The translations under genes and the position numbers were made by a program. A stretch of 63,174 nucleotides of DNA, the filler included, from Craspedostauros australis (Eukaryota), in assembly GCA_030167865.1 (NCBI GenBank). It is 12 parts of 12 records of this genome, joined end to end, with 100 filler letters (N's around TTAATTAATTAA, not from the genome) between each part and the next. Parts side by side here need not be neighbours in the genome. Positions count along the whole stretch, not along the records: positions 1 to 8,522 come from JALAGF010005746.1; 11 more parts are not named here. One strand, given 5' to 3'. Shown one piece after another: positions 1 to 54,359 of this stretch (the first letter of the stretch is position 1; each line of letters begins with the position of its first letter). A model generated the notes under the pieces. That model made no database searches, had not been told where the DNA came from, and worked only from the letters and a program-made list of their open reading frames with translations.

Positions 1-43
1 CACGGAGACGCAAGAACCATCACCACCGAAGGAAGAACACACT

Positions 44-2515
44 ATGAGCGTGAACATGGCAAGGTACCAACAGACCTCCATGAAATACAGCCCGACATCA
101 AAAACCCTTCGGCTAACCAGAACCCAACGAAAACCGAACCCCCTCGAAATGGCACAAAGGAAATCACCCAGAACCATCAAGCGCACCAAGAGCACACCGG
201 CCTCGCCCAACCGCCAACAGACGCGNAATTCCAGTGTCGTATACGACATGACCGACAACCGTACCACGAATCAGAACCACGAGCCAGCTGGCGCGCCAAC
301 CGACAAATTCTTGATCCGGCGTGGCGACACACCACCATCAGCCCTCACCGACGAATTCAGCACATTCTCGAGCATCAACCCCTCATGTGGAAGCGACGTC
401 CTCTACTACCCAAGAGACATGCTGGAGACAGGACCCATCATGCCAAGGAACCAATCACACGTCGCCACATCGACCAAGTTCCGGAAACCACCACCTGGAG
501 CCACCATGCCAGCCATCACAGAAGGTAACTGTGAAACTTCCTTCCACACGGGCCTGGCACCTCGGGTTTTCGTCACACCTGAGCACGAAACGTACAGGTG
601 TGACATGTTGATTGCTGACCTCCAAGAAGACCTGGCACGGAACGCGACCGCACCCTCTATTGCATTCCGCGACATGAACATGCTTTCACCACAAAAACGG
701 AGCCGCCACAACCAGGGCCCCAGACACAACCTCTCCCCATTCCAGACGAGGACACGCAAGATGACATTCCCAAAGTACACCCCGTTCTACGACGGCATTC
801 AATGCCCCGTCCCCGGATCCAGGGTGCTATATCCCGCAGGAAAGAAGGGACCCTTCCAAGGAATCGTCGTCGGATACAGTGGCCGCAGAGTCCGAATCTT
901 CTGCACGAAGGGAAACGATAACACACCAGCCGGCCGTATTTCCCACGTAGAGAAACAATCCATCTACCCCCTCACCCTCTCTGAATACCTGGATAACAAC
1001 CTCCAAACCACCGAGGTCCTCAGCATCGCCATAGCCGATGGCCAGTGCTTCTACCCCGCCCAGGACGGCGCATGGGGCGAACCACCCGACGAGTTCCGCG
1101 CAACCATGCGGAAGCCATCCATATGCCACTTTTTCAAGGTGAGGAAGAACCGGATCCCAATCATCCTCGCACACGCAAGGAAGGCACGAATGGTCCGAAA
1201 ACAAAGCGACACCCTCGCCATCAACCTTGTACGAGAGAAGAAAGCACTCGCGAACGAGCCTTTTCCCCCTACCGATGAGGATGACATGGTCGACGGAATA
1301 CCATCCCTCGAAGACACCCGCCCCAGTCTCGAAGTGGGAGAGACACCAGAAGGCAGGTTCCTGGATGAGATCCCTGACGGATACTTCGATGAAAAGATGA
1401 CCGCAGAAGAAGCCAGCCATCAGGAATCTGAATCAGAGGCGTACCGCGATGGAGATCAAGAATCGCAGGGCTCAGAAGGCGTGATTGACGTGGAAGCAGA
1501 GATCGCAAATGGAGCGGTAATCAGCCATCCCAGACCCCCCATCAGACGATCCTCACGACCATCACCGGCGTCCAAAATCTTGACAGCCACGCGAGATGGA
1601 CAAGGGTACACCGACAAGGTACGACCAAAGCCCGTGATCCCAACCGACCATTCCGTGGACAGTGCGTCCGTCCCAGAGCCCGGCGACAGTGACGATTCTG
1701 GGTCCATCTACCGACCAGAAGGCAACTCAATCAACCGGAACCAAGCATCGCGACGACCCTCCTCTGGAGCCAGCAGCAAGCAAAACAACCGCCCCAAGAG
1801 AAAGGGGCTCTTCGATGAATCTGAGGATTCAACCGTTTCCTCGGGAATGTCAAGAATCAAGACGATCAAACAGGTCAGGTCCGCCAAGAAAACCACGAGT
1901 GGGACCATCAACGCGAAAGGAGCTCCCACCACGGCCGCGGAGAATCCTCCCGATGCAGCAGAGCCGATGCCTCCCACAACCCAGGATGAGCAACCAGAGG
2001 TCCCTACACCACCGGAGGGGCCAACCGATGATGACGTGCCGATAGCAACCGCGTACCCGGCACCTGCGAACCACAATGAGGATGCGAACGCCAACACCCG
2101 CAGTTTCCCCGTCTTGAACCATCCCCTGCCATCGACACCCAACACTCCGGAGACCAGCAACGCTAACAAGAGGGCCCGAACGGAGCCCCGACCAGCGATC
2201 GCATACCCGTCGCCCCGACGTCTTCGATCTGGGTACATCATGTCCAGCAACCATGGACCGGCGACGATGCAACCATCCATGTTCCGGATGCCTCATGACC
2301 CCACCGCCCAAATCAGGGCCGCCCTCCAAAACGACAACAGGACTTCCCCGGTCATCCAAGCTCTCGCCGACATCCTTTTCCGCGGAGGGTTTGACCACAT
2401 CAACCAGGTTCAACAGGTCAGCATCACCTCCTCGTTGAACAAGGCATTGGAACTCATGCACACCATCCGCCTCCAAGGCCGCGGCTACAACGTCAACAAC
2501 GAACAGCCCGAATGA
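44..2515 (+). CDS. Unknown 823-aa protein in the 3' internal region of an LTR retrotransposon (extra ORF or long pol C-terminal extension)
   Basis: Long stop-free ORF whose frame is also open from base 2 to the ATG. It has no gag/PR/IN/RT/RH motifs. It ends ~90 bp before a purine tract and an LTR. A beta-rich segment (GSRVLYPAGKKGPFQGIVVGYSGRRVRIF) lies at ~810-975. Confidence 0.7.
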   Translation: MSVNMARYQQTSMKYSPTSKTLRLTRTQRKPNPLEMAQRKSPRTIKRTKSTPASPNRQQTXNSSVVYDMTDNRTTNQNHEPAGAPTDKFLIRRGDTPPSALTDEFSTFSSINPSCGSDVLYYPRDMLETGPIMPRNQSHVATSTKFRKPPPGATMPAITEGNCETSFHTGLAPRVFVTPEHETYRCDMLIADLQEDLARNATAPSIAFRDMNMLSPQKRSRHNQGPRHNLSPFQTRTRKMTFPKYTPFYDGIQCPVPGSRVLYPAGKKGPFQGIVVGYSGRRVRIFCTKGNDNTPAGRISHVEKQSIYPLTLSEYLDNNLQTTEVLSIAIADGQCFYPAQDGAWGEPPDEFRATMRKPSICHFFKVRKNRIPIILAHARKARMVRKQSDTLAINLVREKKALANEPFPPTDEDDMVDGIPSLEDTRPSLEVGETPEGRFLDEIPDGYFDEKMTAEEASHQESESEAYRDGDQESQGSEGVIDVEAEIANGAVISHPRPPIRRSSRPSPASKILTATRDGQGYTDKVRPKPVIPTDHSVDSASVPEPGDSDDSGSIYRPEGNSINRNQASRRPSSGASSKQNNRPKRKGLFDESEDSTVSSGMSRIKTIKQVRSAKKTTSGTINAKGAPTTAAENPPDAAEPMPPTTQDEQPEVPTPPEGPTDDDVPIATAYPAPANHNEDANANTRSFPVLNHPLPSTPNTPETSNANKRARTEPRPAIAYPSPRRLRSGYIMSSNHGPATMQPSMFRMPHDPTAQIRAALQNDNRTSPVIQALADILFRGGFDHINQVQQVSITSSLNKALELMHTIRLQGRGYNVNNEQPE

Positions 2516-2604
2516 AGCCCGCTCGCCGCCATCTTGGGCGGCGGAACAAACCACACTACGATTAGCTTTCTTGCTTTCAGTCAACTCACGTTTCAACGTG
2601 AGAT

Positions 2605-2613
2605 GAAGGGGAG
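2605..2613 (+). promoter_or_regulatory. Polypurine tract (GAAGGGGAG)
   Basis: Immediately precedes the LTR start; resembles ATAGGGGAG at 8912-8920 and GAAGGGGCG at 54971-54963 (minus). Confidence 0.75.
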
Positions 2614-3162
2614 TAATAGAGCTAAACTAGTAACCACCTTAGCGAGAGAGACTACGAATCATCCGACTCGTCAGCATTCCAGTAGGTCGAATGGACACTT
2701 CGCCGAACCCCACGTTTGGAGACAGATCCAGAACCTTGAAGCGGATCTTCGGAATTCGTGTCAGGGGACCAATGGGGTTCCGATAACCAAGTTTCTGACA
2801 CCCANNNNNNNNNNNNNNNNNNNNNNNNNNNNNNNNNNNNNNNNNNNNNNNNNNNNNNNNNNNNNNNNNNNNNNNNNCATTGTCTCTCACAGAACCCAGA
2901 CGACGGATCTCGACCCACGGTACTTGGGCTACACAACCCACACGCATTGTCATACAGGACACCACAGGAGATTCCCCTCGAAGAGAAGAACCATAGCACT
3001 AATCTCATAATCCGCACGTTTCTTCACCATCTACCAGTATTCTCAATTGACTACTTGTGGAACAGAAGACTCTCGTTCGGACCCGCTTGCCAGTCAAGCC
3101 TCTACAGCCAACAGCTAAAGAACAGCCAACAAGACAACAGCCATTACGTTTGGGCTCTATTA
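2614..3162 (+). repeat. 3' LTR with 9-bp terminal inverted repeats (TAATAGAGC...GCTCTATTA)
   Basis: Perfect inverted ends and a preceding PPT. The right flank resumes mid-gag of Copia family A (AAGTGAGACACC, uninterrupted at 12659 and 13217). Confidence 0.8.
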
Positions 3163-6100
3163 AAGTGAGACACCACCAGGAGGAGAATTTGTGACGAAAA
3201 CAATCTCCGCGCAACAACAAGCGAAAATCGAAAAAGTGACAACACAGAAACAAACGGAAATCAAGGGCGCGAGCGCACCAACAACGAAACAACAACTCAA
3301 CATGGCGACATCAGCCAACATGAACAAACGACGCATCAAGGCGCCGATGTTCAGTGGTGAACAGGAAGACTACAGCGCATGGGAGTCCCAAGCGAAGGCA
3401 TACGCTCGTGCACAGAAGACGAGAGACGTGATGTTGGGGAAGACCAAGGTGCCAACAGTGAGTGAAATCGCGGCAGCGACCGACGTTGCCAAGGAAGCGA
3501 TGGAGGAAATCTACGAGCTGGGATGCGACTGCTTCAGCGATCTGATCCTCATGATGGATGTAGAGAAAGGAAAAGGCAAGCAGGCCATCCAGTACATCAA
3601 CCAGTGCGTCTCCGACGACTACCCCGAAGGAGATCCACACGTAGCGTGGAACGTTCTCGCGGAGAAGTTTCGTCCATCCGATGCAGCGACGAAGATCAAG
3701 CTCAAGCGCCAATTCAACAACGAAAAGATGAAGAGAGACACGGACCCAGACATCTACATCACGCGACTCGAGGGTCTACGATCGCGTCTCCACGATGTCA
3801 AATACGAGATCACGGACGAGGAAATGATCATGCAGATCCTCAGCACGGTGAGCAGCGAGTACAGAACTCACATCGTGAACTTCCAACACCAACTCACGTT
3901 CAATCCGGAACTGGTTACCATCAACGCAGTCAGAGGAGTACTCCGCACTGCATACGCCACTCACCAAGGAGGCAAAGCGTACGTCGACGACTTCCAAGAC
4001 AGCAACACGAAGAGCAACGACACCGGCTTCACGAGCACCGGTAACTTCAAGGGGACCTGTCACAACTGTGGTGTGTATGGTCACAGATCCGCCGATTGCC
4101 CAGAACGCAAGAAATCGAACAACAAGAAAAACAACAACAACAACAAGATGAACGGGAAGCGCAACAACAATCGCAACAAGGGAAGCGGCTTCAACGGGAA
4201 GTGCAACTACTGCGGCATCTTCGGACATCGCGAGGCGGAGTGCCGAAAGAAGAAGTTCAACGAAAAGAAGAAGACCGACGAACAAGCCAACGCGGCAACG
4301 GAAGGACACGACATGAGCGGGCACGAGATGGTACTCTCGGCAAAAGACATGCCGCTCTGCATGTTGGTGTCCGACAACTACATCGAAGACTCCTTCTTCG
4401 ATAACTTCGAGTACGTCAGGAGTGACGACGAAGTGGAGGACGATGAGATCGTTCCGGAGTGGCTCAGCGAGGAGCCCATCATCCACGAGGTGGATCCAAG
4501 ACGCGAAGTGAGCTACGAATGCTGCTTCAATGCAAACAACCTGATCGGTCCATACGGCGACAGAGCCGAGATGGGCAACGAGGCCATCGATAGCGACATC
4601 GAAGAGGCCATGAGTGAAGAGGCCGATGATGAAACCAACGAGAATGATAGAGGCCAAGACGAAACGAACGGCGGCGCGGCGCCGCCTCCTCCAGCAGCGG
4701 GGAACAACAGATCGGGCATCTTCGATGAAGATGACAGCAACGAAACCGAAGATCATCCAGACGACAGCTTCAACCCAAACGAGCGTGTCGTCTATCCAAG
4801 AGACATCGACTTTCCACCGATTGAAAATCCCAACCAATCCAACTTCCTCCATCGACATGACACCGTCCCATGTGCAACAGAAACAGCATTGGTAATCCAG
4901 AAGCAACTCATCTTTGACGCCGTAATGGAAGCAGGGATGAAACTATTCTCAGGAATCGAACGAGGAGTACTCAGACCGATATGGGTCAACATGATGGGAT
5001 CCATCCTATCCGAGAACTTCAGATCAATTGAAGAGATTCTCGCCAATTCGGTCGTCATCAACCGCATATTGGAAGCGAATGAGACAGAGACGATCCCAGA
5101 GATGGACCTGCACTACATCCTTGGAGGATGCATGCGCGTACTCTTACGCGAACGACCACGCGTCAACCCATATGATCCAGCCACAGGATCACATCGGAAC
5201 AGCACGATTCCATCGGACTACGCGCAACTACCCAACGACATGGAAGACGAGGATCACCATCATCCATACAACGAAGATGGAGTTCACGAAGATGAAGACG
5301 ACGGCAGCTTCAACGACGAGATAGCTGCGGCAGCCGTGGAGCAGCTCCACGAGCTCAGCACCAGATACAAGGACAAGGTCAACAAGGACACCTGGCTCGC
5401 TGACAGTGGAGCTTCGTGTCACATCGTCAATTCGGACGCCGCTCTCTTCAACGTGCGGCACATCAAGTCCTTCGTCCAAGTGGGAGACAGCACGAAACTG
5501 GACTCTCCCAAAATGGGATCCATTCGCTTGAAGGTCAAGCAACGAAACAACACTGGCCACATCATCCGGCTTGATGATGTGAAGTACACACCGAAAATGG
5601 CGGTGAACCTTTTCTCCACGAACAAGGCTCTGTAGAACGGTTACCAACTTGGTAGCAACGGCATTCTGATGGACATCATCAACGGATCCGGAACGAAGAT
5701 CGTGTTTGATCGAGTCTTTCCCACATCCAACGGATTCATCACGGGAGTGCAGATGCATCCCATCATGCCAACGGACGATGACAAGGCTTCCNNNNNNNNN
5801 NNNNNNNNNNNNNNNNNNNNNNNNNNNNNNNNNNNNNNNNNNNNNNNNNNNNNNNNNNNNNNNNNNNNNNNNNNNNNNNNNNNCATCGGCGAGATGCCGG
5901 TATGTCGCGACTGCGCGGTCGCGAACGCAAGAGTGAAGAACATCCCGAAGGCAACCATTCCGAGAGCGACTCGCCGCGGCGAACGTCTCTTCATTGACAT
6001 TAGTTACACTAAACACACAAGCTTTGAAGATAAACGCTACTGGACCCTGATCGTGGACGACTGCACAGATCACTGCTGGAGTTTCTTTCTCAAGAACAAA

Positions 6101-8522
6101 AGTGATCAATCAGGGTACATCAAACGATTCATCCAAACGATCAAGTCACAGACAGGTGACCAACAGATCATCTTCTGAGGAGACAACAGCGGAGAGAACA
6201 AATCTACGCAGGATATTCTCATCGATGCAGGACTGAACGTGAAATTCGAATTCACGGCATCAAACACGCCGCAACAGAACGGTAGAGTAGAACGGAAGTT
6301 CGCGTACCTCTACACCAAGATCCGCTCCATGCTAAATGGAGCACAACTCGACGAAGAGTATAGACATGGCCTGTGGGCAGCAGCTGCGAGCACTGCCACC
6401 GCCATCGCCAACATCACCGTAGCAAAGAACCAGAAGGAGTCACCATACCGCCAATTCTTCGGCAGCGATCCACCATACGCGGATGCACTCCGCACATTTG
6501 GAGAGGTGGGTGTTGTGAAGACTACCTACAGCGGGATTACCGCCAAGCTCAAGAATAGAGGAGAAGAGATGGTGTTCATCGGCTATGCACACCAACACGC
6601 ATCAGGGGTCTACAACATGTACAGACCATCAACCAAGTCATTGATCTGCTCACGCGACATCAAGTGGCTCAACCAATCATACGGACAGTTCCGTGGCTGG
6701 GCACCAGCACCGAACATATCCAACGAAGCAGGAACAACGGACGCAGACGGCTTCACAACCATCGGACGGAAGGGAGCAACGCCAAAGACGGCAACGCGTC
6801 AAACATCAGATGCAAAGAGAGTATCTTTCGCTGACAGCAACAGGTATCACATCCTATCAGACAGCGACGATGAGGATAATGAGGACGATGGAGTAGTGAC
6901 TCAACTAATCCATAACGACGAGGAAGATCGGAGTGAATCCAATCATGAGGATGATGAGATCACACCATCTGGCGACGAAGCCGACGATGACACAGGCGTC
7001 ACTCCTCCGAACACACCAGCGAGGTCTACACATGACACACCATCCAGACCTCCACCNAGNAAACCAAGCAAGCGTGACATAGCTAGAAAGGAGAGGATCC
7101 GACGTCACGAAGCACGAGGCAGGAAGGGAGAAGCTAATCCCAAATCAACTACAGGGAAGAGCATTCCCAGAGCTCTGCGTGAGCTCGCAGACTTCAATGA
7201 ACGAGGTCGAAAGGAGGAAGGCTATGAGAACAAGTCATCATCCAATGAAGATAGTGATGAACTCAGCGACGAGGTGACCGACGACTCCAACAACGAAACC
7301 ACAGATGACGAAGAAATCACGGATGAAGAAGAGATCGAGATCACTCACTATAGCGCAACAGGACTGTACGGAATGAATGCAATCATTACCGAATCACCAG
7401 CGATCGACATCGGNNNNNNNNNNNNNNNNNNNNNNNNNNNNNNNNNNNNNNNNNNNNNNNNNNCACCAGCACCGAACATATCCAACGAAGCAGGAACAAC
7501 GGACGCAGACGGCTTCACAACCATCGGACGGAAGGGAGCAACGCCAAAGACGGCAACGCGTCAAACATCAGATGCAAAGAGAGTATCTTTCGCTGACAGC
7601 AACAGGTATCACATCCTATCAGACAGCGACGATGAGGATAATGAGGACGATGGAGTAGTGACTCAACTAGTCCATGACAACGAGGAAGATCGGAGTGAAT
7701 CCAATCATGAGGATGACGAGATCACATCATCCGGCGACCAAGCCGACGATGACACAGGCGTCACTCCTCCGAACACACCGGCAAGGTCTACACATGACAC
7801 ACCATCCAGACCTCCACCAAGTAAACCAAGCAAGCGTGACATAGCTAGAAAGGAGAGGATCCGACGTCACGAAGCACGAGGCAGGAAGGGAGAAGCTAAT
7901 CCCAAATCAACTACAGGGAAGAGCATTCCCAGAGCTCTGTGTGAGCTCGCAGACTTCAACGAACGAGGTCGAAAGAAAGAAGGATATGAGAACAAGTCAT
8001 CATCCAATGAAGATAGTGATGAACTCAACGACGAGGTGACCGACGACTCCAACAACGAAACCACAGATGACGAAGAAATCACGGATGAAGGAGAGATCGA
8101 GATCACTCACTATAGCGCAACAGGACTGTACGGAATGAATGCAATCATTACCGAATCACCAGCGATCGACATCGGACTGTCGATGCAGGACCAGAACAAA
8201 GAACCAGATAAGCACATCGAACCAACGACATTCGATGGAGCCTTCAATCATCCAGATCCCATCCATCGAAAGGGATATCGAGCAGCCATCAAGAAGGAGT
8301 TCGACTCCATGGANACACGCAAGGTGTACAGCAAGATCAAACGAGACGCCATCCCACGCGGCCGCAGATGCTGCAAGTGCAAATGGGTCTTCAAGCTGAA
8401 GTGTGACGGCACACATCGAGCGCGGCTCGTTGCATGTAGCTATTCACAAGTCGCAGGAGTGGACTTCCAAGAGCATTACTCACCTGTCATCCATGACGTG
8501 ACCTATCGGGTCATGATGGTGA
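3163..8522 (+). mobile_element. gag-pol: Ty1/Copia family A gag-pol, defective copy, truncated in RT
   Basis: Gag with two CCHC knuckles (CHNCGVYGHRSADC, CNYCGIFGHREAEC), protease WLADSGASCH, integrase (FIDIS, GDNSGE, PQQNGRVERK), RT start (KWVFKLK...RARLVA). Stops at 5633 and 6176. Confidence 0.95.
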
Positions 8523-8622
8523 NNNNNNNNNNNNNNNNNNNNNNNNNNNNNNNNNNNNNNNNNNNNTTAATTAATTAANNNNNNNNNNNNNNNNNNNNNN
8601 NNNNNNNNNNNNNNNNNNNNNN
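8523..8622. other. Artificial scaffold-joining linker (44N-TTAATTAATTAA-44N); identical linkers at 12379, 23605, 27205, 29017, 36899, 40080, 44494, 48295, 50392 and 53149
   Basis: Invariant 100-bp structure with stops in all six frames; unrelated sequence on either side. Confidence 0.98.
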
Positions 8623-8896: not shown

Positions 8897-8920
8897 ACAA
8901 GACTCCCGACCATAGGGGAG

Positions 8921-10144
8921 TATCAACATCTAGATCGAAATTAGGTACCCATCTCCCATGACTGAAACGTGATTCACTATTTTGATTCGACTCGATTTTG
9001 AGAGTATAGTCGAGTGAGTCTTGATACACGATTGCGATCCAGTCACTACTGTCATCGAACATGACGTAGGCACTGACATCATCGTATGACGTCAGAGGAT
9101 CGGTCATTGTGATCCTCGGAATCNNNNNNNNNNNNNNNNNNNNNNNNNNNNNNNNNNNNNNNNNNNNNNNNNNNNNNNNNNNNNNNNNNNNNNNNNNNNN
9201 NNNNNNNNNNNNNNNNNNNNNNNNNNNNNNNNNNNNNNNNNNNNNNNNNNNNNNNNNNNNNNNNNNNNNNNNNNNNNNNNNNNNNNNNNNNNNNNNNNNN
9301 NNNNNNNNNNNNAGAAAGACCCAAAGGCGAGAATAACACGGAATATCGTGTAAATCAACATGCCATCTTGGGCAATGTTTTAGGAAAGACTGCGAGAGAA
9401 ACCACGAGGTAACCGAGCAGCACGTTAGCAACCGTGCAATAGGCACCATCATTAGAAATAGGAGATCATCATCTCATAATCCAAACCTCAATCATCAATT
9501 GAATACAACCATAACTTAGCAACAACTATCACCAAACACACCGGCTTCACCTGACGGATTGATCACCCTGGCGGAGGAGTAAGTGCNNNNNNNNNNNNNN
9601 NNNNNNNNNNNNNNNNNNNNNNNNNNNNNNNNNNNNAGATTATATTTTAGTCATGGTATGCTGACCTGTCTAGCCTAGCCGAGTGCATCATCGAGCACGT
9701 GGCAACAACATTTAGAGTAGAGATCGTCGTCGTCAGAGGTGATGCATGCACCTCGTCGACGTAGACGGATCAATCCATATATGATCAAACAGAGATCAAG
9801 ATTAGGCAAGACCAGGAGAGATGAAGAAAGACCCAAAGGCGAGAATAACACGGAATATCGTGTAAATCAACATGCCATCTTGGGCAATGTTTTAGGAAAG
9901 ACTGCGAGANAAACCACGAGGTAATCGAGCAGCACGTTAGCAACCGTGCAATAGGCACCATCTTTAGAATGATGAGATCATGTTCTCATAATCCAAACTC
10001 AATCATCAATTGACACACCAATAACTTAGCAACAACTATCACCAAACATCTCCAACTCCACCTCTCGGATTGATCACCCTGGCGGCGTAGTAAGTGCAGT
10101 GTTTGGTGCTCCCCTCTTGTCCTGTGTGTAATTGCTGATTATCA
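8921..10144 (+). repeat. 3' LTR sequence present as two diverged, gapped copies (8921-9586 and 9638-~10144)
   Basis: Starts TATCAAC right after PPT ATAGGGGAG. 9314-9586 matches ~9825-10097. Abuts the satellite; the right end is approximate (10141-10144). Confidence 0.7.
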
Positions 10145-11283
10145 GTGGCTGTCGATGCAATGCTGTTGGGGAGCTTGGGCACGGACTGCATGCTTGCATC
10201 GATGAGGAAATGGCTGTGGCTGTGATGCTGTTGGCGAGCATGGACTCGGACGGCATGCTTCAATCGAAGTGGATGTGGATGCGATGCTGTCATGGAGCAT
10301 GGACTGCATGCTTGGATCGAAGTGGATGTGGCTGACGATGCGATGCTGTCGTGGAGCATGGACTTGGACGGCATGCTTCAGTTGCAGTGGCTGTAGCTGT
10401 GGATGCGATGCTGTCGTGGAGCATGGACTCGGACGGCATGCTTCAATTGCAGTGGTTGCGGTTGTGGATGTGATGCTGTCGTGGAGCATGGACTCGGACG
10501 GCATGCTTCAATCACAGTGGCTGTAGCTGTGGATGTGATGCTGTTGGCGAGCATGGACTCGGACGGCATGCTTCAGTCGCAGTGGTTGCGGTTGTGGATG
10601 TGATGCTGCTGGCAAGCATGGACTTGGATGGCATGCTTCAATCACAGTGGCTGTAGCTGTGGATGTGATGCTGTTGGCGAGCATGGACTTGGATGGCATG
10701 CTTCAATCGCAGTGGTTGCGGTTGTGGATGTGATGCTGTCGTGGAGCATGGACTCGGACGGCATGCTTCAATCACAGTGGCTGTAGCAGTGGATGTGATG
10801 CTGTTGGCGAGCATGGACTCGGACGGCATGCTTCAGTCGCAGTGGCTGCAGCTGTGGATGTGATGCTGTTGGCGAGCATGGACTCGGACGGCATGCCCCA
10901 ATCACAGTGGCTGTAGCAGTGGATGTGATGCTGTCGTGGAGCATGGACTCGGACGGCATGCTTCAATCACAGTGGATGTAGCAGTGGATGTGATGCTGTT
11001 GGCGAGCATGGACTCGGACGGCATGCTTCAATCACAGTGGCTGCAGCTGTGGATGTGATGCTGTTGGCGAGCATGGACTCGGACGGCATGCTTCAATCAC
11101 AGTGGCTGTAGCAGTGGATGTGATGCTGTTGGCGAGCATGGACTCGGACGGCATGCTTCAGTCGCAGTGGCTGCAGCTGTGGATGTGATGCTGTTGGCGA
11201 GCATGGACTCGGACGGCATGCTTCAATCGATGCGGCTGTGGCTGTCGATGCGATGCTGTTGGAGAGCATGGACATGGACTGCA
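10145..11283. repeat. 65-bp tandem repeat (satellite), ~17 units
   Basis: Unit ~GTGGATGTGATGCTGTTGGCGAGCATGGACTCGGACGGCATGCTTCAATCACAGTGGCTGTAGCA. GCATGGACT recurs every 65 bp from 10486 to 11201. Edge units are degenerate. Confidence 0.97.
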
Positions 11284-12478
11284 TCTGTCACTCTTTGGGG
11301 TTGGCTTCTCGCATCGATGTGGATGTGATGATGAGGGGCTGGGCTTTTCAGTTTGGTTTTGTGCTGTTGATGTTGATGTTGTCATTGTCTTTGCTGTCGT
11401 GGTCACTTGCATTGTCACTTTCATTTTCACTTTTGTCGTGGCTGTCGTCGTTGTTGTCGTTGTTGCTGTGCTGTCGGCTTTTCGTCTTCTGCCCATTTTG
11501 CCGCCTTGATGTGCAATGGACATGAACAATGACGCAAGCCCACACCAAAACAAGCCAAGTTCCTTGTTCTGGGCCATCCAAAACCGATGACTTTCATTGC
11601 CGCAGAAACCGACACAACTGTCCAACCCAGAACCTGGATACCACGAACTGTCGTTGCAGACATCAAAACGACTATTTTTACATAATGGAGTGATTTCGCA
11701 GTTTTTTCCAACGCCTCGATGAAATTTGTTTGAAATCGAGTGTAACATGTGGAAGACGTCTCATGCTGCTTGAAATCGATCAAAACACGACCGAGGTCGA
11801 CGCCGAGCACAACCAGAGGAGAGGAATCGGAACCACCTCATCTACACGTGGAGGAGGGACGTCCTCCCGCATCTGTCAGTCTGAACGTCGACTTGCACGT
11901 AGACGTAGCAAAGCAACCATGAAGGCAACTGTACTAAAGTAACATAGTAGAAATATATGCATTCCTATTACCATTATCGATCTTCCACATGCATAGGAGA
12001 CGTATAGACCAGCTAGTGTCGAAGGAGAGGCATTGGTGTATTATTCGTGCTCACATCAAGTGCTGCATGAGTGCGCTGCAATTTTGGCACTAGTCTGTAA
12101 AGCACAGGAACCAGAAGTAAATTTGCGGTTGCAACGTCCGTATGTATCGCGTAACGCAAAAACCGTGTTGTTTCCACGCAGTGGGGTGTCATGTTTGCGT
12201 TGGGGTCTGTTTTTTTGTGATTTTGACCCCCTCTGAGGGGCCGGAATTCTGCCTTTAAAGGCAGGCCTGCCTTTGAAGGAAGAATTGGGGCCCTCTGACC
12301 CCTCCGATCTTCCTTTGAAGGAAGGTGCACTAGGAAAGCTTCCTTCAAAGGAAGGAAAAAACTCACCATGGATATGGTNNNNNNNNNNNNNNNNNNNNNN
12401 NNNNNNNNNNNNNNNNNNNNNNTTAATTAATTAANNNNNNNNNNNNNNNNNNNNNNNNNNNNNNNNNNNNNNNNNNNN

Positions 12479-15400
12479 AGAAGAGAAGGAAGCAGCCGCG
12501 GCTACTGTCCTATCAGGCGCAGACGCAAGCGCGATCGACGAGACCGAAGAGGAACGGTCTGCGAGGCTACATCGCGAGGAGAAGAGCATTCTCAAGACGG
12601 TCAAGCAGGAGGAGACTGGTGTGACGGAGAGTATTCGCACAGCCAAACGGAGTGGTAAAAGTGAGACACCACCAGGAGGAGAATTTGTGACGAAAACAAT
12701 CTCCGCGCAACTACGAGCGAAAATCGAAGAATCGCTAACACGGAAACAGACGGAAATCAAGGGCGCGAGCGCACCAACAACGAAACAACGAATCAACATG
12801 GCGACATCAGCCAACACGAACAAGCGACGCATCAAGGCGCCGATGTTCAGCGGTGAACAGGAAGACTACAGCGCATGGGAGTCCCAAGCGAAGGCATACG
12901 CTCGTGCACAGAAGACGAGAGACGTGATGTTGGGCAAAACCAAGGTGCCAACAGTGAGCGAGATCGCGGCAGCCGACGGTGAAACCAAGGAAGCGATGGA
13001 AGAGATCTACGAGCTGGGATGCGACTGCTTCAGCGATCTGATCCTCATGATGGATGCTGAGAAAGGAAAAGGCAAGCAGGCCATCCAATACATCAACCAA
13101 TGCATCTCCGACGACTACCCCGAAGGAGACGCACACGGAGCGTGGAACGTTCTCGCGNNNNNNNNNNNNNNNNNNNNNNNNNNNNNNNNNNNNNNNNNNN
13201 NNNNNNNGGTGGGAAAAGTGAGACACCACCAGGAGGAGAATTTGTGACGAAAACAATCTCCGCGCAACAACAAGCGAAAATCGAAGAATCGGTAACACAG
13301 AAACCGACGGAAACCAAGGGCGCGAGCGCACCAACAACGAAACAATGAATCAACATGGCGACATCAGCCAACGTGAACAAGCGACGCATCAAGGCGCCAA
13401 TGTTCAGCGGTGAACAGGAAGACTACAGCGCATGGGAGTCCCAAGCNAAGGCATACGCTCGTGCACAGAAGACGAGAGACGTGATGTTGGGCAAGACCAA
13501 GGTGCCAACAGTGAGCGAGATCGCGGCAGCCGACGGTGAAGCCAAGGAAGCGATGGAAGAGATCCACAAGCTGGGATGCGACTGCTTCAGCAATCTGATC
13601 CTCATGATGGATGCAGAGAAAGGAAAAGGCAAACAGGCCATCCAGTACATTAACCAATGCATCTCCGACGACTACCCCGAAGGAGACGCACACGCAGCGT
13701 GGAACGTTCTCGCGGAGAAGTTCCGACCATCCGATGCGGTGACGAAGATCAAACTCAAGCGTCAATTCAACAACGAAAAGATGAAGAGAGACACGGACCC
13801 TGACATCTACATCACACGACTCGAAAGTCTACGATCGTGTCTCCACGATGTGAAGTACGAGATCACGGACGAGGAAATGATCATGCAAATCCTCAGCACG
13901 GTGAGCAACGAATACAGAACTCACATCGTGAACTTCCAACACCAACTCACGTTCAATCCGGAACTGGTTACCATCAACACGATCAGAGGAGTACTCCGCA
14001 CTGCATACGCCACTCATAGAGGAGGCAAGGCATACGTCGACAACTTCCAAGACAGTAACACGAAGAGCAACGATACCGGCTTCACAAGCACCGGTAACTT
14101 CAAGGGTACTTGTCACAACTGTGGCATGTATGGCCATAGATCCGCCGATTGCCCAGAACGCAAGAAATCGAACAACAAGAAAAACAACAACAACAACAAA
14201 ATGAACGGAAAGCGCAACAAGGGAAGCGGCTTCAAGGGCAAGTGCAACTACTGTGGCATCTTCGGANNNNNNNNNNNNNNNNNNNNNNNNNNNNNNNNNN
14301 NNNNNNNNNNNNNNNNNNNNNNNNNNNNNNNNNAACAAGCCAACGCGGCTACGGAAGGACACGACAAGAGCGGGCACGAGATGGTACTCTCTGCAAAGGA
14401 CATGCCGCTCTGCATGTTGGTGTCCAACAACTACATCGAAGACTCCTTCTTCGATAACTTCGAGTGCGTCGGAAGTGACGACGAAGTGCAGGATGATGAG
14501 ATCGTCCCGGAGTGGCTCAGCGAGGAGCCAATCATCCACGAGGTGGATCCAAGACGCGAAGTGAGCTACGAATGCTGCTTCAACGCGCACGACCTGATCG
14601 GTTCATACGGCGACGAAGCTGAGATGGACGACGAGGCCAACAATAGCGACATCGAGGAGGCCATGAGCGATGACGACGACGACGACGACGCCAACGAGGA
14701 CGGCGCAGATGAAGACGACGAAACGAACCGCGCCGCGGCGCCGCCTCCTCCAGCGGCGGGGAACAACAGATCGGGCATCTTCGACGAAGATGATAGCGAC
14801 GAAACTGAAGACCATCCAGACGACAGCTTCAATCCAAACGAGCGTGTCATCTATCCAGCGAATATCGACTTCCCAGATATTGAGGATCCCAACAGTGTCG
14901 ACTACCTCCTCCGTCACAGCGTCACCCCGAATGCAACAGCAACAGCATTGATAATCCAAAAGCAGCTCATCTTTGACGCCATAATGGAAGCGGGGATGCG
15001 AGTGTTCCCAGGAACCACACGAGGAGCACTCATGCCAATATGGGTGAACATGATGGGATCCATCCTATCCGAGAACTTCGGATCAATCGAAGAGATTCTT
15101 GTCAATTCGGTCGTCATCAACCGCATACTCGAAGCGAACGAGACGGAAACGATCCCAGAGACGGATCTGCACTACATCCTTGGAGGATGTATGCGTGTAC
15201 TCTTGCGAGAGCGATCACGCGTCCACCCATACGATCCAGCCACAGGATCACACCGAAGCAACACGATTCCATCGGACTACGCTCAGCTATCCGATGAGAC
15301 CGACGACGAACATCACGAGAATCCATGGAACGAATATGGAGTTCACGTCGACGAAGAGGACAAAGACAACATCATGACCGATACAGCTGCAGCAGCTGTG

Positions 15401-18400: not shown

Positions 18401-20517
18401 CGACTACAGGGAAGAGCATTCCTAGAGCTCTGCGTGAGCTCGCAGACTTCAATGAACGAGGTCGAAAGGAGGAAGGCTATGAGAGCGAGCCATCATCCAA
18501 CGAAGAGAGTGACGAACTCAGCGATGAGATAACCGACGAATCCAACAATGAGACTACAGATGACGAAGAAATCGTAGATGGAGAAGAAGAGATCGAAATC
18601 ACTCATCATAGCACAACAGGGCTGTACGGGATGAATGCAATCATCACCGAGTCACCAGCGATCGACATCGGAATGTCGATGCAGGACGAGAACAAGGAAC
18701 CAGAGAAGCACATCGAACCTACAACGTTCGACGGAGCCTTCAACCACCCAGATCCTATCCATCGGAAGGGATATCGAGCAGCCATCAAGGAGTTCGACTC
18801 CATGGATACACGCAAGGTGTACAGCAAGATCAAACGAGATGCCATCCCACGCGGCCGCAGATGCTGCAAATGCAAATGGGTCTTCAAGTTGAAGCGTGAC
18901 GGCACACATCGAGCACGGCTCGTTGCATGTGGCTATTCGCAAATCGCAGGAGTGGACTTCCAAGAGCACTACTCGCCCGTCATCCACGACGTGACATATC
19001 GAGTCATGATGGTGATCATGCTGATCAAGAAGATGGACTGCGCACTCGTCGATGTCGTAACGGCATTCCTACACGGAGACCTCGANNNNNNNNNNNNNNN
19101 NNNNNNNNNNNNNNNNNNNNNNNNNNNNNNNNNNNNNNNNNNNNNNNNNNNNNNNNNNNNNNNNNGACTTGTGCAGAGCGCCAGGCAATGGTTCAAGATG
19201 TTGGTATCGACCCTCAAGAATATCAACTTCGAACAGAGCGCAGCAGACCTGTGCCTGTTCTACAGGAAGACGAAGGAAGGAAGCATGATCGTGGCCATCT
19301 ATGTGGACGATTGCTTCTGCTGCGGAGACTCCAAAGCGCTGGAGACATTCCTGAAGGACATCCAAGGCAGTTAATTCAAGGTGACAATCGAGCGCGGACT
19401 CGGAGATTACCTCAGCTGTAACATCGAACTGAACCATGACAAGACTAGAGCAACATTGCGTCAACCACATCTCATCCGACATCTCATCGAAGAGTTCGGA
19501 TCCAAGGTTGAGAAGATGCAACGCTACACGACACCGGGAACTCCAGGTCAAATCATCGTACGGCCATCCAAAGATAACGGACTGCAGAAGGTCGGACCAG
19601 AAGAACATGCTGAATACGGCTGAGGCGTTGGTATGCTACTCTTCCTCATCAAGCACTCGCGACCAGATATCGCGAACCCTGTGAGAGAACTCTCCAAGGT
19701 ATTGATCGGACCCACCAAGGCCGCAATGAAGGAGATGTATCGGATCATCAAATATGTGATCGATACAAAGGACTATGGATTGAAGATCCATCCAGCGCGT
19801 CCAGATGACGACAGCTGGGACATGGAACTCTTCTGCGATAGTATTAGCATTATGCTTTATTCCGCACAGCTCTCTCTTGTGTTCCAGCTTAGTTGTGCGT
19901 ATGAATCGTATCCTGAACCAACGCGAACCATGAAATGGTCACATTACGAGCGAATAGCTCGACGAGAAACAAAACTACAGCAGTACCAAGGTACTGGGTA
20001 TCAGAGAAAAGGGTACCATGAACAAGATCGATACTGTGAGCCAGCTACTGACCCAAACCAGTTGAACCTGAAGAGATGTAAAGATCCTATCCGATGCATG
20101 CAGAACAGAGGAATGCAAGAGCAGAGACATGGACATGAACAGAGGTCAGAGAGTAAGCTCACAACTCCTAAGTTTGTAATAACATTCGAGTTTCCAACAG
20201 ACTTCCAGTGAACGCCCCCTTCTCGATCTGATCAATTGCAGAAGGACGCGTTCTCCCCTACGTTACCACCAATTCCTCAAGTCTAACAGATAGCGAATAT
20301 GCAGGAGACAAGAACACGAGAATCAGCATAGGAGGGTTCATCCTATACCTGTGCAAGGTACCAATCCTTTGGCGATCCAAGGCACAGAAGGCCGTCACAC
20401 TCAGCTAATCCGAAGCAGAATACGTTGCCCTTTCCGAAGCGACAAAGGAAATCTTCTTCGTCGTGCAGCTACTCGAGAGTGTGGGCGTCCCTGTGAAGAC
20501 ACCGATCAAGGTCCACG
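12479..20517 (+). mobile_element. gag-pol: Ty1/Copia family A gag-pol, mosaic of overlapping assembly copies, gag through RNase H
   Basis: Gag, PR, HHCC (LHQMLGHA...CRDC), IN, RT (IYVDD at ~19300), RH (FCDS/EYAGD...SEAEY). Stops at 13345, 16671, 19372 and 19621. Two LTR insertions in RH. Confidence 0.95.
19842..20288 (+). mobile_element. Solo LTR (447 bp) with 5-bp TSD GATAG, inserted in Copia RNase H
   Basis: GATAG at 19837-19841 and 20289-20293; ends TATTAG...CTAACA. Removing it restores MELFCDSEYAGDKNTRISIGG. Orientation is inferred. Confidence 0.92.
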
Positions 20518-21312
20518 TGTCGAGATGTACATGTGAGTATATGTCGAGATGTACGTGTATATGTGCATCGTTCACCCGTTATTCTCTATTTCGCACTTGG
20601 ACGGTATAACTACACTCGTGTCAATAGTATGCTGTGATTCGTCAGAATTACAGCGGAAACGGAACACACGAAAAAGAGCAAGATTTCTGGAGGAAATTTG
20701 CAATCGACGATTTCTGACGAAACTAGAAGATCGTCCGTCCATCCATCAATGGTACCAAGAGAATCTCGAGGTACTTCCCAACTAAACCTCAGATGACGAT
20801 ATCATCTGACAGACTGCTGCATCACCAATGGAACGTGACATCTGGAGAGCAGAAGGACGCCTACTGACGTCGACAGGATGTCATTGTGTCACCACGTTGA
20901 CATCTGTCTCCAAGTCAGAGCAGGAGGTGAAGATCAGATGACCCATGAAGATCATGGATACTGAAGGTGAACTTCAAATGGTAAGTACTCATGGAGTAGG
21001 AACCAGTACTGAATGAACAGAGTGTCGAATGCGGAGTATGCATCGAACACAGAGTATCGTGTAGCACGAGCACACGATGTTGAGAGAGAGAGAGAGAGAG
21101 AATACAGAGAGGAGCGAGAGAGCATCTCGCGTACCGACTCATAGTCGGAGACTGAATCTACGAAACAGATTGAAGCGCCAAGAGCATTGGGCAAGAGAAC
21201 TGGTGTACACCGAGAGGATTGGAGTAGCCAAGTAATGAAATAGCAAACAGACGACTATAAACCAACATCATCTTCCACGATCGTAGGTTACCGTGAGCGG
21301 AACTTGCCAATA
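20518..21312 (-). repeat. LTR-like repeat family L4, copy 1 (795 bp)
   Basis: Homologous end to end with 49568-50371 (inverted) and partly with 54010-54359. Ends TATTGG...TCGACA; internal (GA)n tract. Confidence 0.85.
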
Positions 21313-21934
21313 CAAGCGAATGATCCACTCAGGCGTGGACGGTCTCTCTCGTGGTGATATGAATGCCGGGGTGATGGCCGGCCATGACATTCATTCCTTC
21401 CTGCCATTGCAGACCACAGCACTGGTGCTATCTCCTTCTCTGGAGCAGTGGATACAATCCTGGACACCAGCAAATGTCGAGTTTCTGACACCAAACAGAT
21501 GGGCCAAGACACACGTCAACCAAGGCACCTACGTATGGACACCTCCACCAGCGGCGGCTGCAGCAGCGATCGAGTTCATGAACGGCTCCATACACAAGCA
21601 ACCATTCTCAACGCATGTGATCGCCATTCCTCGTATCATGACGGCGTGGTGGTACAAGATCGGTCTGAAGGCATCCAATTTCGACATGATGGTGAAGGCA
21701 GGAATGGCCAGCTGGTGGGATACTGTACAACTCGAACCCCTCACACTCTTCCTTGTTCTTCCTCTCAGCAAAACTTCCCCTTGGAAATACAAAAACTCAC
21801 CCACCATTTCACGAGCTAAGCGGGAGTTGCAAGCAGTGTGGGAGACAGGTGCGGAAGGGAGCAGGGCTGTTCTACGCGAACTACTGTCACAAGCGAGGCT
21901 TCGACAGCGAGTGTCGTGGGACATGGTGCGGTAA
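21313..21934 (+). CDS. DIRS-like retroelement: RNase H C-terminus plus methyltransferase-like domain, 5'-truncated by the L4 repeat
   Basis: RMIHSGVDGLSRG matches the DIRS RH ADxLSR motif. YVWTPPP and VIAIPRIMTAWW match DIRS MT-like motifs. Overlaps the YR ORF in another frame. Confidence 0.75.
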
Positions 21935-23309
21935 CTGCTACCATCTCCTTGGCGACGACACGTTCCCGATCCGCAGACCAGTGGACGAAGATGGCAATGT
22001 CATGCAGTTCAAGCTGGACGAACGCCGCTTCCAGCACGCCCGCCTTGGGGACCACCTTATGCTCAGCTTCCAGTGCGAGCTGTGTCACTTCCGCAACTTG
22101 CAACAGAGGGATCCAGTGGTGGGAAGCGGAAAGGACTCCGCTCTCATGAAGTTCATCAAGCGAGCGAACCTCGATGCGTTCTGGAGTCGAGAGAGCTCCA
22201 CCGTGGCACGGAACTGGTCTCACCTACACCGGATGGTCATGCAGTCCAGTGCACTGGGATTGTCACCAACATACAATCTCCCACCTCTGGGCCCAACGAA
22301 AGTGGAAGACGAGATCGGCATGTTTCTTGCGGTGAATCTACTCTACAGATCGCTCGACACAGGAAAGAACGAGCCAACGGTCCAGTTCAACACGGTTCGG
22401 AAGATGAGATCATCCTACTTCAACCTTTGGCAGGCCTCTGCCAACAGTGCAGATGCACAGACAGTAGCGGTACGCAAAGCCCAGAAGTTCGAGATGACGA
22501 CCAGTCCCTCCAGCAGGGTATGGTTTGAGCGCTTCACCAGGGGAATGCACAGCCGTATGGGAGACAAAACCTGCCCTGACCTGGCTATTTCGATCGGAGT
22601 AATGCTCGAGCTCATGGCTCGGTTTGAGAACAGATGGTGTGAAGGCATCGCGAACGGGTGGTCGGACTCGGACATGGAGCACATCTTGTTCCCGGCACTC
22701 TTTGCGGTGCTCGCTTTCATGGGTGGACTCAGAGCAGAAGAAGTGGTGCTGTGCGATCTCGTGGGAATGCGGAAGCACCACAACATGGGCACGAACCACA
22801 GGGACCCAACCTTGAGACACACGGTCATCGCCTTGCTGGGGCGATTCAAGACGGAGACTGGAGAGAAATACCATTTGATGCCAATAGCGCTGGAATCTCG
22901 CTCCGGCTTGAAACCAGCGGCATGGGTGGATCGAATGCTGGTCTGGTACGAGAAGCGAACAGTGATCGATGGACCTGTCTTTCGATCCTCGATGGGAGAT
23001 CGAATCAAGCCGGTCAAACTTCAACCCAAGATCCATGAAGTCCTCTTGGAGATCCAGGATGACAGACCAGATCTCATACCATTGCATCTCGATGTCACTG
23101 AGGAGTACGCAGTGGGACGGAGCTTTCGCAGAGGCTCCAACACACAGGCCATCAACCAGAAGGTAGATGAGCGCGACGTTGACCTGAACAACAGATGGCG
23201 TCGATTTGAGGCAGCGGCTGGGAGGCAGCCGAGGTTGCAGATGCAACAACATTACGGGGACGTCATGCAGATGCTGCCGTCCCTGCTACGATATTCCGCT
23301 GCCCTTTGA
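21753..23309 (+). CDS. Tyrosine recombinase of a DIRS-like (YR) retrotransposon
   Basis: GGLRAEEV (Arg I), GRFKTE (Lys), GRSFRRG (HxxR box), RWR, QHY (Tyr); Cys-rich N-terminus. The true start is uncertain (first in-frame ATG at 22002). Confidence 0.88.
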   Translation: MFFLSAKLPLGNTKTHPPFHELSGSCKQCGRQVRKGAGLFYANYCHKRGFDSECRGTWCGNCYHLLGDDTFPIRRPVDEDGNVMQFKLDERRFQHARLGDHLMLSFQCELCHFRNLQQRDPVVGSGKDSALMKFIKRANLDAFWSRESSTVARNWSHLHRMVMQSSALGLSPTYNLPPLGPTKVEDEIGMFLAVNLLYRSLDTGKNEPTVQFNTVRKMRSSYFNLWQASANSADAQTVAVRKAQKFEMTTSPSSRVWFERFTRGMHSRMGDKTCPDLAISIGVMLELMARFENRWCEGIANGWSDSDMEHILFPALFAVLAFMGGLRAEEVVLCDLVGMRKHHNMGTNHRDPTLRHTVIALLGRFKTETGEKYHLMPIALESRSGLKPAAWVDRMLVWYEKRTVIDGPVFRSSMGDRIKPVKLQPKIHEVLLEIQDDRPDLIPLHLDVTEEYAVGRSFRRGSNTQAINQKVDERDVDLNNRWRRFEAAAGRQPRLQMQQHYGDVMQMLPSLLRYSAAL

Positions 23310-23704
23310 TCGGATTGGCGTCCGAACGAAGAAGGGAAAGCAGCTGGGACCCGGAGGGGGAAGGATTTCGGCACTCAACCGACAAGCGGTTCTCGGAATA
23401 TCGGCATTGCAGGATCAAGTGAGAGGCTGAGTGACGTACGTCACTTTGGGATGTGGCAGCGACCCAGGTCGCGAGCACTTTGCTTCGGGCACCCCATATC
23501 CAAATGGATAAGCTTCTTGCAAGATAGCATTTGCTATATGAAGATGAATCGGGACTGGACTCGATATGCAGGCAGTGATGCAGATGGAACTCTCAGGATC
23601 CCCTNNNNNNNNNNNNNNNNNNNNNNNNNNNNNNNNNNNNNNNNNNNNTTAATTAATTAANNNNNNNNNNNNNNNNNNNNNNNNNNNNNNNNNNNNNNNN
23701 NNNN

Positions 23705-50371: not shown

Positions 50372-50491
50372 CAGCTGGATGCTTGAGGTTGNNNNNNNNN
50401 NNNNNNNNNNNNNNNNNNNNNNNNNNNNNNNNNNNTTAATTAATTAANNNNNNNNNNNNNNNNNNNNNNNNNNNNNNNNNNNNNNNNNNNN

Positions 50492-54009: not shown

Positions 54010-54359
54010 TGTCGAGATGTATATGTGAGTATATGTCGAGATGTACGAGTATATGTGCATCGTTCACCCGCTATTCTCTCATACGCACTTGGACGGTATA
54101 ACTACANNNNNNNNNNNNNNNNNNNNNNNNNNNNNNNNNNNNNNNNNNNNNNNNNNNNNNNNNNNNNNNNNNNNNNNNNNNNNNNNNNNNNNNNNNNNNN
54201 NNNNNNNNNNNNNNNNNNNNNNNNNNNNNNNNNNNNNNNNNNNNNNNNNNNNNNNNNNNNNNNNNNNNNNNNNNNCGTCCGTCCATCCATCAATGGTACC
54301 AAGAGAATCTCGAGGTACTTCCCAACTAAACCTCAGATGACGATATCATCTGACAGACT
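54010..54359 (-). repeat. LTR-like repeat family L4, copy 3 (partial; interrupted by the family D Copia)
   Basis: Starts TGTCGAGATG like 20518; homology stops at TCTGACAGACT exactly where the family D LTR begins. Confidence 0.88.

Follow-up and report, generated by a model that had tools for sequence, protein, structure and literature searches.

An 837-codon orphan reading frame ahead of a diatom Copia LTR: a possible third gene of a Ty1/copia-type retrotransposon

What is a long reading frame with no recognizable retroelement motif doing immediately upstream of an LTR, and does it belong to the element that the LTR bounds? The question is raised by a 63,174-nt stretch (the window) composed of 12 small, linker-joined contigs from the draft genome of the pennate diatom Craspedostauros australis. 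In the first of these, a frame that we call ORF837 precedes an LTR, on the far side of which lies the gag-pol region of a Copia-type element (Copia A); the host is a diatom. Copia sequence is also present on six other contigs of the window, two of which carry Copia A. Our tentative answer, to which we attach somewhat less than an even chance, is that ORF837 stands as a coding region of its own at the end of an LTR retrotransposon of the Ty1/copia type (CoDi-like). The features on which the argument turns are, in order:

2..2515, plus strand: ORF837, 837 codons, open at the window edge, with stop codon TGA at 2513-2515
854..1060, plus strand: beta-rich stretch within ORF837 (the 'barrel-like' segment of the initial annotation), approximately residues 285-352, a low-confidence prediction
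2523..2544, plus strand: GC hairpin, 8-bp stem (2523-2530/2537-2544) and 6-nt loop, 8 nt after the stop codon
2555..2631, plus strand: long imperfect hairpin, in which a pyrimidine tract pairs with the polypurine tract, reaching 18 nt into the LTR
2605..2613, plus strand: polypurine tract (PPT) GAAGGGGAG, nine pure purines touching the LTR start
2614..3162, plus strand: LTR, a 549-nt unit with perfect 9-bp inverted ends and a 73-N assembly gap at 2805-2877
3163..3301, plus strand: Copia A leader, 139 nt, the PBS region; its first bases are identical to those of copy 2 at 12658 and 13215
3302..8522, plus strand: Copia A gag-PR-INT-RT, ended by the contig end

ORF837 is a real coding sequence. 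Frame 2 is open from nt 2 through to its TGA, as first described, with the earliest ATG at nt 44 (codon 15); when nt 1-2515 were shuffled 2000 times at the mononucleotide level, no open frame exceeded 395 codons (mean 152), which, together with the periodicity of base use by codon position, shows the frame to be genuine. The other two plus-strand frames of the region contain 25 and 20 stops. The shuffle maximum led us to reject the idea that a frame had stayed open by chance because the DNA is T-poor; an antisense gene was likewise rejected, as the minus-strand ORFs do not exceed 258 aa, which is expected from the base skew. By contrast, the argument that the frame stays open while the Copia has accumulated stops carries no weight. 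Relative to copy 2, just two in-frame stops are private to copy 1 of Copia A (TAG at 5633-5635 and TGA at 6176-6178) in approximately 5.2 kb; at this nonsense rate, around one stop would be expected in 2.5 kb and the probability of seeing none is approximately 0.38, such that the openness of ORF837 is uninformative.

On sequence searching, ORF837 is an orphan, without a relative in the Pfam, protein, PDB, metagenome or viral collections, or in the rest of the window. No Pfam family matches it at E ≤ 1, which bears out the earlier statement that it contains no retroelement core motif; phmmer returned no match at E ≤ 0.001 from 1.84 billion representative proteins, PDB sequences gave none at E ≤ 10 and the best PHROGs match had an E-value of 0.28. 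There was no usable ESM Atlas match for 761 aa of the protein, and the best score for a 171-aa part (0.83) was within the noise range. Pattern matches in metagenome contigs (34) and viral contigs (3) included no confirmed relative, and none of 4202 candidate proteins of near length scored. Within the window, the best blastp match among the other long ORFs had an E-value of 1.4, and a tblastn search for a second copy found only ORF837 itself below E = 1; hhalign against a nine-sequence Copia A alignment gave a Prob of 0.1% and an E-value of 0.54.

The predicted protein is rich in Pro, Ser, Thr and Arg, and is mostly disordered. The acidic and basic tracts noted at the outset are indeed present: residues 401-500 form an acidic block of net charge -23, and there are also basic blocks, with patches that are NLS-like. 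The protein contains no transmembrane helix (the highest Kyte-Doolittle mean over 19 residues is 0.69) and matches no env family in Pfam; the lack of a membrane helix argues that it is not an envelope protein, in agreement with the original proposal. Two single-sequence AF2 models, of too low a quality to be usable (mean pLDDT 35.9 and 33.5), place strands at the same residues, with pLDDT below 50 there, and predict, at low confidence, one beta-rich part of roughly 100-150 residues; the last 60-70 residues are predicted to be helical. The suggested beta-barrel is not confirmed by this analysis, given that the strands are predicted only at pLDDT <50 and that no Pfam family matches the segment. 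An SH3, KOW, Tudor or chromo-like barrel was found neither in Pfam at E ≤ 1 nor among PDB sequences at E ≤ 10, and the searches lend no support to such a fold or to an anti-silencing role. A G..V....GPF.G.V pattern may be KOW-like.

The 98 nt that separate the stop codon from the LTR are structured. The GC hairpin CGCCGCC/ATCTTG/GGCGGCG was reported at 2524-2543, where we confirm it, and it folds with the slightly longer stem given above. The long imperfect hairpin beyond it has arms of 31 nt that are 74% complementary, and its core is the palindrome CTCACGTT-TC-AACGTGAG; the fold of 2513-2640 has a predicted energy of -49.6 kcal/mol (z = -5.75), and none of 200 shuffles was as stable. As to the polypurine tract, a purine-rich stretch does adjoin the LTR as claimed, but the tract originally proposed, GAGATGAAGGGGAG, contains a T: the purine-rich stretch begins at 2600, and the pure run amounts to only 9 nt (2605-2613). 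With purines at 52%, we estimate the chance of a 9-nt purine run at the LTR start as 0.52^9, or approximately 0.003. The sequence GGGGAGTA occurs only twice in the 63-kb window, the second time at 8915-8922, where it closely follows the stop codon of pol in another Copia; the ORF837-side PPT/LTR junction and the pol-proximal junction of this other Copia have the form GGGGAG/TA in common.

The LTR itself is bounded at both ends. Its ends, TAATAGAGC (2614-2622) and GCTCTATTA (3154-3162), are perfect 9-bp inverted repeats, exactly as annotated, for which the estimated chance is approximately 4^-9 per position; the reverse complement of the last 9 nt is found once upstream, at 2614-2622, directly after the 9-nt purine run. 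Moreover, the right boundary is set independently by the start of the homology to copy 2 of Copia A (3162 corresponding to 12658 and 13215). Elsewhere in the window, the terminal 9-mer is absent at zero mismatches and present once at one mismatch. No second copy of the LTR exists in the window, so that it is identified as an LTR by its inverted ends, the PPT and the Copia boundary; the LTR-leader junction, taken as an exact 29-mer, had no match in metagenome contigs. Because of the 73-N gap inside it, the length and continuity of the LTR are provisional, and its two halves could stem from different loci or families. We also considered a TA-target MITE with 7-bp TIRs inserted in the Copia leader. 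This was rejected: the sequence to the left of the unit shows no similarity to that to the left of the copy 2 leader, so that such an insertion would leave the shared boundary unexplained.

To the right of the LTR, the Copia A internal region (leader, gag and pol) starts exactly after the last LTR base (3162/3163). A canonical Copia gag start follows the 139-nt leader; no TGG-type PBS was seen after the LTR, and there are no tRNA genes in the window. The Pfam domains in 3191-8521 are Retrotran_gag_2, zf-CCHC, Pol_BBD, SH3_retrovirus and RVT_2, a Copia-type gag-PR-INT-RT order, and the relatives are Copia polyproteins; these domains and relatives suggest that Copia A is of the broad CoDi-like kind. 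The initial annotation had treated this Copia as a neighbour of the element containing ORF837, which it probably is not: the homology of the internal region to copy 2 begins exactly at the last base of the LTR, and the LTR therefore serves as the 5' LTR of Copia A. To the left, 98 nt lie between the end of ORF837 and a bounded LTR, with a purine run immediately in front of the latter; ORF837 is therefore most likely internal to an LTR element and located at its 3' end, as had been supposed. The complete order is ORF837, stop, two hairpins, polypurine tract, LTR, leader, gag, PR, INT and RT. With a single LTR that has a PPT before it and a gag leader after it, ORF837 and Copia A most likely belong to one element type.

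Synonymous sites bear on the origin of ORF837 from another direction. We made in-frame composition comparisons for the ORF thirds, gagN, int, rt and the whole set, using as host reference the one host gene available (GC/PDE). The share of T at 4-fold sites is 8% for ORF837, compared with 11-16% for the Copias and 21% for the host gene; in RSCU, ORF837 correlates with Copia A at 0.80/0.74, with Copia B at 0.82 and with the host gene at 0.62. The synonymous-site make-up of ORF837 is thus retroelement-like: T-poor like the Copias and unlike the host gene. C, however, accounts for 41% of 4-fold sites against 25% in Copia A (chi-square p = 3e-5), and the overall 4-fold-site make-up is nearer to Copia B than to Copia A.

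If the LTR were the 5' LTR of the Copia only, ORF837 would be a host gene, or an ORF of some other mobile element, at the insertion site, and the purine run would be a coincidence. The exact abutment of the LTR and the Copia internal region, the absence of a retroelement motif from ORF837, its single copy in the window and its C-rich synonymous sites, unlike those of Copia A, would all fit. We regard this as quite improbable, given the low estimated chance of a purine run touching the LTR start (approximately 0.003), the GGGGAG/TA form shared with the pol-proximal junction of another Copia, the low T content at 4-fold sites (8% versus 21% in the one host gene available) and the continuation of the structured 3' UTR of ORF837 into the LTR.

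Since no stop precedes ORF837 within the window and its frame runs open to nt 2, it could also be an outsized C-terminal extension of pol, continuous with the reading frame of an RNase H located outside the window. In favour of this, a further Copia of the window (minus strand, 53249-63174) codes for a polyprotein of roughly 2900 residues, with long stretches that lack a Pfam match and, by estimate, approximately 170 residues after RNase H; in the relative P0012 the corresponding estimate is approximately 190. Four of the five Copia A relatives listed reach the end of RNase H, and by eye all four stop within approximately 190 residues of it, whereas the fifth, P0005, breaks off before that point. 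Against such a background, a fused extension of at least 837 aa would be unusual, and a separate ORF is favoured. Additionally, Pfam and hhalign against Copia polyproteins detect no RNase H remnant in the 837 residues in view, and there is an ATG at codon 15. An extension of pol is very unlikely, and we infer that ORF837 is separate from it. In copy 2 of Copia A, RNase H is broken by another insertion at 20506; among the relatives, P0016 carries a chromodomain after the integrase. A search of viral contigs with the Copia A profile produced 22 pattern matches, none of which was confirmed.

A further possibility, albeit an unlikely one, is that ORF837 comes from a different LTR-retrotransposon family, X, and that the sharing of an LTR with Copia A is secondary. 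Terminal bases can be common to related families, and the scaffold gap might have joined the left part of an X 3' LTR to the right part of a Copia A 5' LTR; alternatively, copy 1 might be a recombinant in which strand transfer at the PBS brought in the LTR of X. The 73-N gap lies inside the LTR, as the first route would have it, and the 4-fold-site composition, which departs from Copia A towards Copia B, points the same way. So does the situation at copy 2, where the internal region sits behind unrelated sequence upstream of the same junction, in two assembled versions. In the nine relatives of Copia A, moreover, the polyprotein takes up nearly the whole contig (5.1-8.5 kb), and at most one contig may have space left for a third ORF of 2.5 kb. 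Conversely, perfect 9-nt inverted ends are most simply explained if both halves represent one LTR type, and the terminal 9-mer has no other exact occurrence in the window and a single one with one mismatch.

We return to ORF837 as the proposed last gene of a Copia A-type element. Several observations count against this reading in their own right: the unrelated sequence upstream of the junction in copy 2; the occurrence in the window of a single ORF837 and a single LTR despite Copia sequence on six other contigs; the C-richer 4-fold sites of ORF837 relative to Copia A; relatives' contigs almost without room for a third ORF; the lack of any homologue that would point to conservation or function; the gap in the LTR; and the frame open to the window edge.

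The link between ORF837 and Copia A is seen only as a permuted junction, in one copy on a gapped draft contig. The single LTR would act as the 3' LTR for the left side and as the 5' LTR for the Copia on the right. Tandem LTR-element arrays, 1-LTR circle junctions and collapsed assemblies all present the order 3' internal end, PPT, single LTR, leader and gag. The junction described here matches the three alike, on a draft contig with a gap; it could derive from two tandem copies, from a 1-LTR circle, or from collapse by the assembler or scaffolder of the two LTRs of a multicopy family, and each of these origins would imply a complete element of the form LTR-gag-pol-ORF837-PPT-LTR. As to function, our best guess is that the protein would be a lineage-specific accessory factor of the nucleus or the particle, binding nucleic acid or chromatin, and a candidate role is that of an adaptor for targeting or counter-silencing. 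The fuller scenario, in which a diatom Ty1/copia lineage gained a third gene of approximately 2.5 kb encoding a nuclear, largely disordered protein with a small beta module and a helical tail, for the choice of integration sites or for anti-silencing, is doubtful.

Extra retrotransposon genes reveal how elements deal with their hosts, through targeting, escape from silencing or particle formation. In this fuller scenario ORF837 would, as far as literature searches show, be the first report of an accessory ORF in a diatom Copia and would represent a wholly new protein family; an 837-residue orphan carried by such an element would add a new example and offer a handle on the conflict between transposable elements and their host in an ecologically important alga. 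With a single copy, on a draft contig that contains a gap, it serves for now as a lead that would be cheap to settle.

Comparable arrangements exist elsewhere. In plant LTR retrotransposons, additional ORFs (aORFs) can lie in sense between pol and the 3' LTR, outside the core gag-pol machinery and often without a recognizable domain, according to Vicient and Casacuberta 2020 (PMC7264820). ORF837 would resemble these in both position and lack of a domain, although its host is a diatom, it has no sequence relative in the libraries searched and one copy is known here. Bdelloid rotifer LTR retrotransposons have captured lineage-specific ORF3s downstream of pol, not all of which are env; those described by Rodriguez, Kenefick and Arkhipova 2017 (PMC5408684) include env-like, GDSL esterase and DEDDy exonuclease families. 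ORF837 would likewise be a non-env third ORF downstream of pol, but it has no recognizable family, and the rotifer elements are retrovirus-like and animal, whereas this one would be a diatom Copia. A further comparison is with the CoDi-like Ty1/copia elements of diatoms themselves (Maumus et al. 2009, PMC2806351; Llorens et al. 2009, PMC2774666). The portions of these two articles to hand mention no ORF after pol in CoDi elements, and their supplementary element maps might show one. They do describe, in CoDi-A, a chromodomain after the integrase, so that diatom Copias acquire extra modules; this chromodomain lies inside pol, whereas ORF837 lies after pol and has no chromodomain match. Copia-type elements rank among the main repeat classes of diatom genomes, and stress-responsive members are known, as reported by Maumus et al. 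2009 (PMC2806351). Overall, the gag-PR-INT-RT of Copia A appears to be of the same broad kind as that of the CoDi-like elements portrayed there, in a host that is also a diatom.

The window is not a single locus: a linker (N44-TTAATTAATTAA-N44), present in 11 copies (e.g. at 8523-8622 and 12379-12478), splits its 63,174 nt into 12 small contigs, and features on either side of a linker are not physically adjacent. ORF837 (the open frame at the start of the window), the LTR that follows it and the first copy of Copia A (the gag-PR-INT-RT element to the right of the LTR) all lie within the first contig, 1-8522. Gaps of 50 N are numerous, with near-identical duplicates on both sides (e.g. 6702-7413 and 7464-8175, 97.5%); these are unmerged overlaps. 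The closest matches of the one clear host gene, none above 64% identity, come from raphid pennates (Nitzschia, Epithemia, Cylindrotheca, Seminavis, Fistulifera), which makes the source a pennate diatom without proteins of its own in the searched collection. The features are as follows:

2-2515, plus strand: ORF837, frame 2 open from nt 2, 837 codons, first ATG at 44, TGA at 2513-2515
2524-2543, plus strand: GC hairpin, between the ORF837 stop and the polypurine tract (PPT)
2555-2631, plus strand: long imperfect hairpin, in which an upstream pyrimidine tract pairs with the PPT, reaching 18 nt into the LTR
2605-2613, plus strand: pure purine run, GAAGGGGAG, adjoining the LTR start
2614-2622 and 3154-3162: perfect 9-nt inverted ends of the LTR
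2805-2877: gap of 73 N inside the LTR
Between LTR and gag: Copia A leader, 139 nt
3302: canonical Copia gag start, after the leader
29117-31662, minus strand: host gene fragment, fusion of a guanylate cyclase and a cyclic-nucleotide phosphodiesterase
53249-63174, minus strand: Copia B, a second type of Copia, very large, whose uninterrupted polyprotein of ~2900 residues runs off the window

The intact long frame described in the initial annotation is confirmed, and it is open to the window edge. Its strand contains little T (14%), and long open frames are likelier in such DNA; even so, the longest frame in 2000 shuffles reached 395 codons, as against 837. Because of this length, the 25 and 20 stops in the remaining two frames, and the differing base use of the codon positions, we conclude that ORF837 is coding, or was until recently. 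The further argument that it stays open while the adjacent Copia has stops carries no weight: Copia A copy 1 has only two in-frame stops, each differing from the copy 2 codon by one base (TAG where copy 2 has TAC, TGA where it has CGA), and two in ~5.2 kb predict about one per 2.5 kb, such that the probability of finding none is ~0.38.

The product is an orphan; most of it is disordered, and it is not env-like. It is rich in P, S, T and R; basic blocks and strongly acidic ones (net -23 at aa 401-500) are present, as originally noted, and, again as anticipated, no membrane helix was found (highest 19-residue hydropathy mean, 0.69). No relative was returned by Pfam and PHROGs, by a word-indexed set of 5.8 billion proteins (near lengths), by phmmer against the complete set of 1.84 billion representatives, by PDB sequences and the ESM Atlas, by metagenome and viral contigs, or by the rest of the window; against a profile of Copia A polyproteins, the top Prob was 0.1%. 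There was thus no alignment, and AlphaFold was run on the single sequence, giving two models with mean pLDDT of 35.9 and 33.5. Strands at ~aa 285-303 in both, and helices at ~aa 767-826 in the larger, are too low in confidence to count. An SH3/KOW/Tudor identity would be a guess, as would a KOW-like glycine pattern.

Downstream of the frame, the GC hairpin and the perfect inverted LTR ends are present as annotated; the pure purine run does touch the LTR, but the longer PPT originally delimited includes one T. For the region 2513-2640 the folding energy is -49.6 kcal/mol (z = -5.75), and in genomic RNA the imperfect hairpin might either hide the PPT or expose it. Homology between Copia A copies 1 and 2 starts at 3162/3163 (12658, and the duplicated 13215, in copy 2), which coincides with the final base of the LTR; the right end of the LTR is thereby fixed without recourse to the inverted repeat. 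Its terminal 9 nt recur once upstream as the reverse complement, immediately after the purine run. Together, these observations identify the unit as a true LTR, both preceded by a PPT (a 3'-LTR signature) and followed by leader, gag and pol (a 5'-LTR signature). The simplest readings of this junction are two tandem copies with one LTR in common, a 1-LTR circle, or a merging by the assembler or scaffolder of both LTRs of one multicopy family, which the 73-N gap would fit; under each, ORF837 and Copia A would belong to one kind of element, with ORF837 at its 3' end. The PPT-LTR joint, GGGGAG-TA, recurs once in the window (8915-8922), just past another Copia's pol stop, although this is weak support, as at least two matches occur in 13 of 100 shuffles. 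The original placement of the frame inside the element therefore stands in that it most likely lies 3'-terminally in an LTR element; the Copia called neighbouring is probably of the same element type, given where the homology between its copies starts.

Several points weigh against ORF837 and Copia A being one element. Upstream of the LTR/leader joint, copy 2 has quite different sequence in both assembled versions, so Copia A internal regions also occur behind other sequences. This sequence (12479-12657 and 13208-13214) is unrelated, purine-rich and open in frame with gag, exactly at that joint; a different type of LTR, a recombinant, or upstream coding sequence fused to the element would each be a possible origin. 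No further copy of ORF837 or the LTR is present in the window, though six other contigs contain Copia sequence. C at four-fold sites is 41% in ORF837 versus 25% in Copia A (chi-square p = 3e-5). Nine Copia A relatives (29-44% identity to the first aligned, P0007; 37-49% to the query locally) encode polyproteins 1369-1955 aa long, and their contigs measure 5.1-8.5 kb, leaving essentially no space for an extra 2.5-kb ORF, and four of five inspected, complete at the C-terminus, end within an estimated ~190 residues of RNase H. If it belongs to Copia A, ORF837 would therefore be a lineage-specific addition, more likely as a separate ORF than as a pol extension.

At four-fold sites ORF837 has 8% T, compared with 11-14% for Copia A, 16% for Copia B and 21% for the host gene. 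Its codon usage (RSCU) correlates at 0.80 and 0.74 with copies 1 and 2 of Copia A, at 0.82 with Copia B and at 0.62 with the host gene. These figures suggest a retroelement-like rather than host-like composition in a comparison based on a single host gene. Overall, membership of the Copia type that follows the LTR, separate and fused forms counted together, is marginally favoured.

Elsewhere in the window, the N-terminal ~1350-1380 residues of Copia B lack a Pfam family, and an estimated ~170 follow its RNase H. Another element (20506-23604) interrupts the RNase H of Copia A copy 2; its segment 20506-21312 recurs at 49568-50386 (83%), and its 537-aa ORF (21696-23306), with a Cys/His-rich N-terminus and no Pfam match, resembles a Crypton/DIRS-like tyrosine recombinase in its C-terminal part. 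A 65-bp tandem array (10145-11284; ~17 copies, 77-90% identity) shares its contig with a Copia 3' end.

CoDi-like Copias of diatoms have been described (PMC2806351, PMC2774666); in the literature searched, none of these diatom elements was reported to have an ORF downstream of pol. CoDi-A is reported to have a chromodomain after integrase (PMC2774666), and one environmental relative of Copia A, P0016, carries one too (PF00385), located between its integrase and its reverse transcriptase. ORF837, seen as one copy in a gapped draft, would represent a known kind, the accessory ORF of an LTR element, in a new host and with a new protein: additional ORFs located after pol and before the 3' LTR form a known category in plants (PMC7264820) and likewise in rotifers (PMC5408684), and ORF837 probably shares this placement.
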